UHGV virus genome: UHGV-0053376
DNA: 10,524 bases
Reading direction: 5' to 3' (one strand)
From: a virus
The stretch's first letter is position 1, and the number at the start of each line of letters is the position of its first letter. Of this stretch, positions 7,144 through 8,550 are shown piece by piece. A program made the position numbers and the translations under genes. The notes under the pieces are model-generated. The model had not been told where the DNA came from, did no database searches, and saw only the letters and a program-made list of their open reading frames with translations.

Positions 7144-8202
7144 TCATCCGTTCTGACTGACTAAATTCTGAACTTCCCTGACCGTCTGCTCAAAACGCTC
7201 AGTCTCCAGCTCAACGCCAGTTGCACGACGTCCCAGCGCTATCGCTGCTTTGACTGTCGAACCTGACCCCATGAAGAAATCTGCAACCAGGTCACCCGGA
7301 CGACTGCTCGCGCTGATTATCTGCTGCAGCATTTCTGCCGGTTTTTCGCACGGATGTTTCCCGGGATAGTACTGCACCGGTTTATGCGTCCACACATCGG
7401 TGTACGGCACCTGCACCGTCACACCAAAATACCGCCGCAGATGCTTATATTCACTCTGCAGTTCCGTATACTGCCGGTTCAGTTCACTGTATGTGCTGAC
7501 CAGTTGGTGATGTGGCTTTTCCAGTTCTCCGCGCTGATGCTTATCTTCTGCCACCCGGGCAAACAGCGACTGTAATTTCAGATAATCGCTTTCGTTCGGT
7601 AGCTGCCACTGACTGGCACTGAACCAGTGCGACACCATGTTTTTCTTTCCTGTGGCATCTGCAATCTGTTTTGCCGTTATCCCCAGGGCCGCGCGCGCAT
7701 CACGAAAGTAAGAAATCAGCGGGGCCATCACATGCTGTTTCAGTGCACTGCCCTTCGCCGCATACCCGGCATCTTTCGGACGATACGGCCCCTGATAATG
7801 TTCCGCGAACAGAATGCGCTCTGTGGCGGGGAAATACGCCCGCAGGCTTTCCTTGTTGCATCCGTTCCAGCGTCCGGACGGCTTCGCCCAGATAATATGG
7901 TTCAGCACACTGAAGCGTTCACGCATCATGATTTCGATATCAGATGCCAGGCGATGACCACAGAACAGGTAAAGACTTCCGGCAGGTTTCAGCACCCGCC
8001 AGAACTGCGCCAGACACTGGTCCAGCCACTTCAGGTAATCATCGTCGCCCTTCCACTGGTTATCCCAGCCCTCAGGCTTCACTTTAAAGTACGGCGGATC
8101 CGTGACTATCAGGTCAACAGAATTTTCGGGTAACGACCGGATAAATTCCAGGCAGTCGGCGTTGATTAACTCACAACTGGATATTTTTACAGTATTAAGC
8201 AT
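7144..8202 (-). CDS. Orphan DNA amino-methyltransferase (N6-adenine or N4-cytosine, beta class), 352 aa
   Basis: N-terminal catalytic motif IV DPPY (LIVTDPPYF) and C-terminal AdoMet-binding motif I FxGxG (DFFMGSGSTVKAA). Motif IV before motif I is the beta-class order. No restriction endonuclease gene is adjacent. Confidence 0.85.
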   Translation of the reverse strand: MLNTVKISSCELINADCLEFIRSLPENSVDLIVTDPPYFKVKPEGWDNQWKGDDDYLKWLDQCLAQFWRVLKPAGSLYLFCGHRLASDIEIMMRERFSVLNHIIWAKPSGRWNGCNKESLRAYFPATERILFAEHYQGPYRPKDAGYAAKGSALKQHVMAPLISYFRDARAALGITAKQIADATGKKNMVSHWFSASQWQLPNESDYLKLQSLFARVAEDKHQRGELEKPHHQLVSTYSELNRQYTELQSEYKHLRRYFGVTVQVPYTDVWTHKPVQYYPGKHPCEKPAEMLQQIISASSRPGDLVADFFMGSGSTVKAAIALGRRATGVELETERFEQTVREVQNLVSQNG

Positions 8203-8296
8203 GGATCATTAAGCCTGTCTCTGATAGGCTCATTCTGCTTTTGCGCAAAGCAGTGGGCCTGAGGTTTGCTTGTGAACCCAACGCATGAGCAGATGG

Positions 8297-8325
8297 CTGG
8301 TGGGTGCCCCTAACACCCACCAGCC
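8297..8325. repeat. Perfect 11-bp inverted repeat with 7-nt spacer in the methylase leader, carrying Chi (GCTGGTGG) on both strands
   Basis: gctggtgggtg 8297-8307, loop cccctaa, cacccaccagc 8315-8325. No U-tract follows on either strand, so it is not a classical terminator. GCTGGTGG at 8297-8304 and its complement at 8318-8325 are Chi octamers. Confidence 0.6.
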
Positions 8326-8342
8326 GCCCATTTACCACAAAT

Positions 8343-8366
8343 AAAAAAGCCTTCACTGCGGAAGGC
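8343..8366 (-). terminator. Intrinsic terminator overlapping the stop of the small winged-helix ORF
   Basis: Stem gccttc 8349-8354 / gaaggc 8361-8366 with a 6-nt loop. On the minus strand it is followed by U6 (complement of the A-run 8343-8348). Confidence 0.5.
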
Positions 8367-8550
8367 GTCTGTAACAACCGAACTGATAGTCTGCCAGACC
8401 CGCCATAACCAGCTGGGTCAGTATTAACTGGCAGCGTTCGCGTGAAAGGTAAGTATTCTGCGCTATCTCCCCGACTGTCGCCGGTTCGGTAACTCTTAAT
8501 TCATTAAACACTACTCTGGCGGTTTCTGTCATATCCTGCTGTTTTAGCAT
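8353..8550 (-). CDS. Small winged-helix-like DNA-binding protein (about 65 aa), hypothetical regulator
   Basis: Internal ATG at 8550 chosen (AAGGGA upstream). Segment ATVGEIAQNTYLSRERCQLILTQLVMAGLADY fits the helix-turn-helix pattern of ArsR/MarR-type winged helices. Located between the candidate tR' and the methylase gene. Confidence 0.45.
   Translation of the reverse strand: MLKQQDMTETARVVFNELRVTEPATVGEIAQNTYLSRERCQLILTQLVMAGLADYQFGCYRRLPQ

Follow-up and report, generated by a model that had tools for sequence, protein, structure and literature searches.

The window analysed here, a 10,524-nt stretch of the virus genome UHGV-0053376, is the late region of an Escherichia coli lambdoid prophage, and its relevant genes all lie on the minus strand. 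Between positions 7144 and 8550, it carries a DNA methyltransferase gene, a structured leader RNA and a small open reading frame (ORF) coding for a winged-helix protein. The locus is probably an M.EcoGII cassette of the prophage late operon, in which the methylase would be gated by the antiterminator Q, its translation would be limited by the leader and the winged-helix protein would serve as an accessory. It extends a known theme, namely that a toxic phage gene for DNA modification is kept in check by late transcription together with an mRNA structure that inhibits translation. An earlier note on this DNA had likened the arrangement to the controller (C) proteins of restriction-modification (R-M) systems. 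The part of that interpretation describing an orphan, late methylase with a real and linked small gene has been retained, whereas the controller analogy, the DNA operator and the allegedly unknown methylation target have not. The cassette offers a proposed control architecture that can be tested: antitermination by Q at two successive terminators, a leader RNA with strong covariation and a small protein dedicated to the cassette. It also shows that the notion of small upstream ORFs of this kind as R-M controllers needs correction.

The methylase and its linked small gene

The methylase gene (7144-8202, minus strand) encodes a beta-class N6-adenine DNA methyltransferase of 352 amino acids (aa) that belongs to the M.EcoGII family. 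The protein matches PF01555 (N6_N4_Mtase; E 1.5e-43, residues 29-340), and the motifs DPPY (residues 35-38) and FMGSG (residues 310-314), both invariant in the homologue alignment, follow the beta-class order, in agreement with the DPPY/FxGxG assignment made previously. Over the full length, 330 of 349 residues are identical to the published M.EcoGII (about 95%), although the reference is machine-read text (PMC11551740, Table S1) and a few mismatches are possibly reading errors. M.EcoGII and M.EcoGI are prophage methylases of E. coli O104:H4 C227-11, and M.EcoGII methylates adenines whatever the sequence context and also acts on RNA (Murray et al. 2018, PMC5778455). The enzyme is silent in its native lysogen and harmful on expression (PMC5778455; PMC12707154). 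Moreover, M.EcoGII is in wide use as a research reagent, both for footprinting of chromatin and RNA and in engineered N6-methyladenine (m6A) writers. Phage 1720a-02, whose methylase is cited as a very similar one in the M.EcoGII paper (PMC5778455), encodes an enzyme 95% identical to the window protein and carries the same block of winged-helix gene, leader and methylase gene. Judged by its sequence, the methylase is a close copy of an already known non-specific adenine methylase, encoded by a lambda-like prophage. It shares with M.EcoGII the order of the beta-class motifs and the prophage setting, and it differs by a length of 352 rather than 349 aa and by about 19 substitutions. Because of the identity of about 95%, the methylation target, which had been called unknown, is likely to be known already: by homology to the non-specific M.EcoGII (PMC5778455), this allele is expected to methylate adenines near-globally. 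The consulted parts of the M.EcoGII paper do not mention an upstream ORF, terminators, a leader or a mechanism of silencing and release (PMC5778455). The methylase is an orphan, as had been suggested, since neither a nuclease ORF nor an annotation for a restriction endonuclease was found in the window or in the homologous loci, where Q and tRNA genes form the flanks.

Directly upstream of the methylase gene lies the ORF for the 65-aa winged-helix protein (8353-8550, minus strand, ATG start; phrog_331), which is labelled 'TrmB family' or 'hypothetical' in the databases. Its Met start is conserved among 17 homologues, and this rules out a 94-aa version with a GTG start that would reach position 8637. 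In total, 327 homologues were found, all of which belong to the Enterobacterales, and the differences among homologues show an excess at the third codon position (591:493:1788 for positions 1:2:3). The codon-position pattern and the conserved homologues with their Met start indicate that the 65-aa ORF is a real gene. The AlphaFold2 model (pLDDT 90.9) has the order H1-H2-H3-beta-beta of a winged helix, the fold that had been proposed from the sequence. The best Foldseek matches are the winged-helix domains of IclR and MarR regulators (TM 0.7-0.84), and other matches include the N-terminal domains of O-methyltransferases and SelB. Searches of Pfam yielded only sub-threshold winged-helix families (TrmB, MarR_2, HTH_24), NCBIfam gave no match, and neither a PDB sequence search with the winged-helix profile nor a PADLOC search returned an informative match. 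The protein contains two Cys residues and has a net charge of 0, which ranges from 0 to -4 across the winged-helix variants. Two parts of the protein, the N-terminal DMTE.A motif and the hydrophobic helix 3 (RCQLILTQL.MAGL), are invariant, whereas the wing varies. The product of lambda orf-64, which occupies the same slot after the late promoter pR', was rejected as a homologue because the sequences are unrelated.

The small gene and the methylase gene are tightly linked, as the earlier note had implied. A search with the small protein gave 34 species-representative genome loci; in 32 of them, an M.EcoGII-type methylase gene (58-97% identical) lies just downstream of the small ORF, and the linked taxa extend from Escherichia, Salmonella and Klebsiella through Proteus, Providencia, Mixta and Plesiomonas. 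Thirty of these loci have a spacer of 142-153 nt between the two genes, and another has one of 134 nt; in the last, truncation of the small ORF leads to an apparent gap of 285 nt. Of the two loci lacking the methylase gene, one reaches the end of its contig and the other is a decayed copy. The small ORF is also present in each of the 77 viral contigs that were found via the methylase and contain enough upstream sequence. As the upstream Q gene and the downstream genes vary, the winged-helix gene and the methylase gene appear to move as a unit. Indeed, a 1.9-kb block around the cassette was detected in about 63% of the complete E. coli genomes (3405 of 5426), with a median of two and a maximum of 14 copies per genome. 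Phage records with the block number 288; among them are many Stx2 phages as well as phiP27 and 1720a-02. RefSeq labels the genes in order as antitermination protein, hypothetical or 'TrmB family' protein, DNA methyltransferase and tRNAs. The layout of small ORF and methylase gene is unlikely to be due to chance because the block recurs widely and the spacing is fixed across genera. A decayed cassette was observed in an Enterobacteriaceae gut genome (L020, 4001-4305), where the methylase gene is lost, the winged-helix ORF is truncated and a remnant of the leader still scores 97 bits.

However, the winged-helix gene is not an obligate partner of the methylase. Leader and methylase gene occur without it in 6 of 101 loci, and in two of these six the leader directly follows the terminator tR'. 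In the phages N15, phiKO2 and PhiR46_1, a remote homologue of the winged-helix protein, gp51 (hhalign E 7.7e-5, 30% identity), is encoded upstream of the late promoter and terminator. No small upstream ORF was found in VHML, and the P2-like Aeromonas phage phiO18P has neither the small winged-helix ORF nor the leader. In phiARM81ld and Valp1, the methylase is accompanied by a Com-like zinc ribbon instead. The leader stops where the Com-like ORF begins, both in the Aeromonas phage phiARM81ld (L118, 1701-2044; PF10122, E 1.6e-6) and in the Vibrio phage Valp1 (L126, 1713-1965; PF10122, E 6.5e-3), and this ORF overlaps the annotated methylase start in the former and stops 14 nt short of it in the latter. 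Since the winged-helix gene has not been found intact without the methylase gene, yet the methylase gene occurs alone, the winged-helix protein is best described as a dedicated but dispensable accessory of the methylase cassette.

An alignment of 36 upstream regions uncovered a conserved element, GCTGG-N-CAGAGTTAY.TGT.TGTCAC (8575-8613, minus strand), which is located 35-75 nt before the winged-helix start codon and has a gap of N9-13 between GCTGG and CAGAGTTAY. The element accompanies the winged-helix gene: it precedes gp50-gp51 in N15 and phiKO2, it also lies at ~1185-1225 of L122 and at ~1192-1235 of L119, and it is absent from loci without the winged-helix gene. It has no match to the sigma-70 consensus and may be a promoter, an operator or a 5'-untranslated region (5'-UTR) signal of the winged-helix gene.

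A structured leader RNA in front of the methylase gene

The region between the two genes contains a terminator and a leader with a perfect palindrome, as the earlier note had described. The inverted repeat consists of GGCTGGTGGGTG and CACCCACCAGCC at positions 8295-8306 and 8314-8325, whose 12 nt are 100% complementary and are separated by a spacer of 7 nt. The fixed length of the intergenic regions led to their alignment, and they were found to be highly conserved with compensatory changes. RNAalifold, folds, pair counts and a covariance model define a structured leader RNA of about 140 nt, designated R1 (8197-8336, minus strand). In this leader, the helix P1 (AUGGGC/GCUCAU) encloses the long P2 hairpin (8295-8325), which is the palindrome. 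The helices P3/P3b, in which GGUCA-C-AAGC pairs with GCUU-AC-UGAUC, the 12 nt right before the methylase AUG, enclose P4 and the P5 hairpin. RNAalifold arrived at this architecture, and so did minimum-free-energy predictions made separately for the copies from E. coli, Proteus and Salmonella (z -3.3 to -4.0). In an alignment that was not fitted to the structure, 91.8% of the cells are paired, compared with 29-43% when the partners are slid, and 13 pairs show double changes; 0 of 500 shuffles scored as high. In the model-fitted alignment of 52 distinct sequences, which leans towards the covariance model, the paired cells amount to 92.4%, and double changes occur in 31 of 42 pairs.

The palindrome had been considered as a possible operator for the small protein. 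However, only the E. coli variant has it as a perfect DNA palindrome; in most relatives, P2 is bulged or contains wobble pairs. Moreover, G-U pairs exceed A-C combinations in the whole leader (180 versus 58) as well as in P2 (72 versus 21). This excess points to selection on the methylase-sense RNA and not on a symmetric DNA operator; with its compensatory substitutions, the repeat is better explained as the RNA helix P2.

The leader tracks the methylase across phage types. The window leader scores 123 bits with the covariance model, which was derived from the unfitted alignment and also finds the leader before the methylase gene in SfV, in Morganella and Hafnia phages and in N15, phiKO2, PhiR46_1 and VHML. 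For the 101 model-confirmed viral leader hits, a methylase gene follows each of them wherever the contig continues. By contrast, 19 of 120 hits to a loose DNA pattern of the leader were discarded as chance matches because they had neither covariance-model support nor a methylase gene. No Rfam family matched the leader strand at E<=1 in the window and in four representative distant loci, and a P26 match near the leader on the opposite strand (E 0.16) is weak and was taken as a chance hit. Thus, the leader RNA is conserved and apparently undescribed, and it could be a suitable addition to Rfam as a well-supported new RNA motif.

Several unpaired stretches within the leader are invariant. One of these, AAAUGGGCG at the 5' end of the leader (8325-8333, minus strand), contains an AUG that opens an upstream ORF. 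A leader peptide starting at this AUG was considered and rejected because the ORF is conserved neither in length (7 codons in Salmonella, 33 in the window) nor in frame and because the substitutions track the pairing and not the codons. A GATC sequence, the Dam site, lies directly 5' of the methylase AUG (8204-8207, minus strand) and is conserved in the enteric copies. The Shine-Dalgarno complementarity of the methylase gene is nearly nil (-2.4 to -3.4 kcal/mol).

Probable late transcription and candidate roles of the leader and the winged-helix protein

The cassette is located downstream of a gene for a Q-type late antiterminator of 273 aa (8777-9598, minus strand), which was identified by Pfam (PF03589, Antiterm, E 5e-51), by phrog_127 (anti-termination protein Q-like) and by RefSeq. 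Alignment with the lambda region comprising the Q end and pR', which begins directly past the Q stop codon, revealed a putative lambda-type late promoter pR' (8729-8771, minus strand). Its elements are a -35 box TTGATT (8771-8766), a -10 box TAAATT (8749-8744) that is identical to that of lambda, and the pause-inducing AACGAT GGG (8737-8729). Six bases beyond the -10 box lies AACGATGGG, which is identical and equally spaced in lambda and which, following established lambda biology, we take to be the promoter-proximal pause element where Q loads. Transcription from pR' presumably starts at about position 8737. A sigma-70 consensus scan of the window did not flag pR' and detected no promoter for the winged-helix gene or the methylase gene. 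The promoter is followed by a tR'-like intrinsic terminator (CCCGCC GCCT GGCGGG and U7; 8671-8694, minus strand), which a terminator scan placed at 8679-8694; a hairpin with a U-run is present at this position in most related loci, as the alignment of the upstream regions shows. A second intrinsic terminator (GCCTTC CGCAGT GAAGGC and a U-run; 8340-8366, minus strand) overlaps the winged-helix stop codon; the scan gave 8349-8366 for its hairpin and T-run, and it is kept in Salmonella and absent in Proteus. The behaviour of promoter, terminators and antitermination is inferred from these sequences and from the biology of lambda and Stx phages (PMC7547250).

The similarity to phages carrying different Q genes starts exactly at the tR' terminator, and the position of the cassette is constant behind many different Q types. 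In phiP27, a gene for a GIY-YIG nuclease is inserted between Q and the block of tR', winged-helix gene and methylase gene (L001, 5848-7077), which places the upstream boundary of the block at tR'. As it lies downstream of Q, pR' and tR', the cassette is probably a Q-gated late 'moron', and the methylase seems to be placed for late expression, as had been proposed. In Stx phages, the cassette shares its slot, and presumably its transcript, with tRNAs and stx, and in Stx-converting phages the methylase would therefore be part of the same late transcript as stx. The strong terminator about 45 nt beyond pR' also predicts a constitutive short RNA of about 65 nt, which may be likened to lambda 6S RNA and StxS by position only (PMC7547250). 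Like the lambdoid pR'-tR' switch, the window combines Q, a pR' with a -10-like pause element and an immediate terminator, and the cassette sits where morons are found, after tR' and before the tRNA, stx and lysis genes. In contrast to the lambda model, a second terminator and a structured leader would provide additional layers of control.

According to the proposed mechanism, constitutive pR' transcripts would end at tR' in the lysogen, and leaking transcription would end at the second terminator past the winged-helix gene, so that the two terminators would keep the toxic methylase silent. After induction, Q-modified RNA polymerase would cross both terminators and produce a read-through transcript comprising the winged-helix gene, the leader, the methylase gene, the tRNAs and the lysis genes. 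By pairing the 12 nt before the methylase AUG, the leader fold would most likely limit or time translation. Taken together, the near-absent Shine-Dalgarno sequence, the paired start, the resemblance to the layout of Mu mom and the late position suggest two layers of control, Q antitermination and the leader RNA. By homology, the enzyme would then methylate most adenines of the replicating phage DNA and shield the progeny from many restriction systems. The winged-helix protein would act as a dedicated accessory of the cassette, with the leader RNA, the methylase itself and methylated DNA as candidate targets.

Several points weigh against this reading. The predicted unpaired probability is 0.33 for the methylase start and 0.38 for that of the winged-helix gene, which is no clear difference; given this unremarkable accessibility, the case for occlusion of the start rests on the conserved pairing and not on thermodynamics. 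In VHML, the motif stops just before a normal-looking AGGAAG Shine-Dalgarno sequence, and the leader thus need not always hide the start. The divergence of 5.5% from M.EcoGII could in principle alter the specificity. Finally, the roles assigned to promoter, terminators and antitermination draw on sequence and lambda biology.

By analogy, the closest functional counterpart of the locus is the com-mom operon of phage Mu and not C-protein control. In Mu, Com binds a hairpin that neighbours the translation-inhibition structure of mom (PMC6483171). In Mu-like prophages, non-specific adenine methylases such as Hia5, Hin1523 and Nma1821 replace mom beside com, and the Hia5-type methylases are silent in the laboratory and are thought to be controlled translationally by the small upstream protein (PMC3299994). 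These enzymes resemble the window methylase in being phage-borne and non-specific, but they are Dam-related, and their companion protein and phage type differ as well. The locus shares with com-mom a toxic, late, broad-spectrum anti-restriction modification gene, a small companion gene and, as far as the predicted fold goes, an mRNA hairpin beside a structure that would occlude the start of the modification gene. Moreover, a Com-like zinc ribbon is itself attached to M.EcoGII-family genes in phiARM81ld and Valp1. However, the companion in the window is a winged helix and Com of Mu a Cys4 zinc finger; the winged-helix gene lies upstream of the leader, with a terminator between them; the RNA, with its five helices, folds into a larger structure and shows no sequence relationship to that of Mu; and the enzyme is a methylase dependent on S-adenosylmethionine (SAM) and not Mom. 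Activation by the small protein is only a candidate in the window.

Three candidate roles, which cannot be firmly ranked, are considered for the winged-helix protein: it might be an activator that binds RNA as Com does, it might modulate the methylase or act as its antidote, or it might handle m6A-containing DNA. The last two can be combined in the proposal that the protein binds a protein or modified DNA, either as a stoichiometric inhibitor or modulator of the methylase or as a counter to m6A-dependent (type IV, Mrr-like) restriction of the heavily methylated phage DNA, which we consider a minority possibility. It is in line with the asymmetric dependence, in which the winged-helix gene needs the methylase and not the reverse, with the neutral to acidic charge, with conservation in DMTE.A and helix 3 instead of the wing, and with the terminator after the winged-helix gene, which would yield an excess of its product over the methylase. 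Furthermore, expression of M.EcoGII required a host deleted for mcrC-mrr (PMC5778455), and winged-helix domains are known m6A sensors, according to the titles of published papers. However, this role is proposed on indirect grounds, M.EcoGII alone is fully active in vitro (PMC5778455), Proteus has no terminator between the two genes, and the PADLOC and PDB sequence searches gave no match.

A Com-like translational activator that binds the P1/P2 hairpin, opens P3 and exposes the methylase start is an unlikely role for the winged-helix protein, although it would fit the position of the leader hairpin beside a start-occluding helix, which mirrors Mu mom, and the lack of intact winged-helix genes without the methylase. 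Some winged-helix domains bind RNA hairpins, SelB being among the Foldseek matches, and Aeromonas and Vibrio relatives pair the methylase with the Com-like zinc ribbon instead. On the other hand, leader and methylase persist without the winged-helix gene in the six loci mentioned above and in VHML, and the winged-helix protein is neutral to acidic. In addition, the winged-helix gene precedes the leader, whereas the Com-like ORFs follow it, so that the two do not correspond in position. The P2 sequence is also independent of the winged-helix subtype: subtypes that are just 50-55% identical adjoin the same leader and similar methylases.

It is doubtful that the leader itself is a sensor, either as a riboswitch for a ligand such as SAM or S-adenosylhomocysteine (SAH) or as an autoregulatory site that is bound or methylated by the methylase. 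The complex five-helix fold with its several invariant unpaired stretches, the association of the leader with the methylase and not with neighbouring genes across phage types, and the activity of M.EcoGII on RNA (PMC5778455) would agree with such a function. However, the leader matches no known riboswitch class in Rfam, SAM and SAH are purely proposed as ligands, and the leader fronts the Com-like ORF in two phages. In broader terms, it is a tentative suggestion that the leader represents an undescribed class of cis-regulatory RNAs for non-specific adenine methylases of temperate phages (lambdoid, N15-like, Vibrio and Aeromonas) that responds to the winged-helix protein, the methylase or SAM/SAH. 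If true, such an effector-responsive leader would be a new RNA-based safety switch for an enzyme modifying DNA genome-wide, and the winged-helix protein would be a new kind of RNA- or methylase-binding partner.

C proteins have an all-helical fold of the XRE type with a helix-turn-helix (HTH) and five helices (HTH_3/HTH_31-like in Pfam), and their operators are paired C-boxes of the GACT...AGTC type in front of the gene that encodes them. They share a transcript with the endonuclease, whose expression they time. The window cassette resembles the systems of C.PvuII, C.AhdI and C.Esp1396I in that the modification gene is closely preceded by one for a small protein that putatively binds nucleic acids, but the XRE fold, the C-boxes and the timed endonuclease are all missing. 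A search for C-boxes (GACTNNNAGTC with one mismatch) gave 3 hits in the window compared with 2.6 expected by chance, none of which is located upstream of the small ORF. Thus, despite the DNA-binding type of fold directly upstream of the methylase gene, the perfect 12-bp inverted repeat between both genes and their strict synteny, it is highly improbable that the winged-helix protein binds the leader palindrome as DNA and switches methylase transcription like a C protein, as no XRE-type HTH, C-boxes or endonuclease gene were found, the DNA symmetry of the repeat is broken by bulges or G-U pairs in most relatives, the G-U excess is strand-specific, the repeat persists in loci without the winged-helix gene and in Vibrio and Aeromonas phages, winged-helix variants of 50-55% identity adjoin the same P2 sequence, and the net charge is 0 to -4.

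Neighbouring genes and further RNA elements

The gene order on the minus strand is DUF968, RusA, Q, the small ORF, the methylase gene and two tRNA genes, which are followed by genes for a TolA-like lipoprotein, a NanS-p-type esterase, a holin, a lysozyme and Rz. The two phage tRNA genes (6942-7103, minus strand) are supported by ARAGORN, the Rfam tRNA family and RefSeq, and they lie downstream of the methylase gene in what would be the same late transcript. ARAGORN assigns the gene at 6942-7018 (minus strand) to tRNA-Arg (TCG). The tRNA with the CAT anticodon (7028-7103, minus strand) is called Met by ARAGORN, whereas RefSeq and phage records give tRNA-Ile of the ileZ type; presumably, it is read as Ile following lysidine modification.

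Two further RNA elements were observed in the window. A full-length match to the STnc100 small RNA family (RF02076; 177.7 bits, E 2.9e-41) is located at 5919-6128 on the minus strand between the genes for the TolA-like lipoprotein and the NanS-p esterase. At the prophage edge, a cspA-type 5'-UTR thermoregulator (RF01766, 114 bits; 307-691, minus strand) occurs together with a gene for a 70-aa cold-shock protein (334-546).

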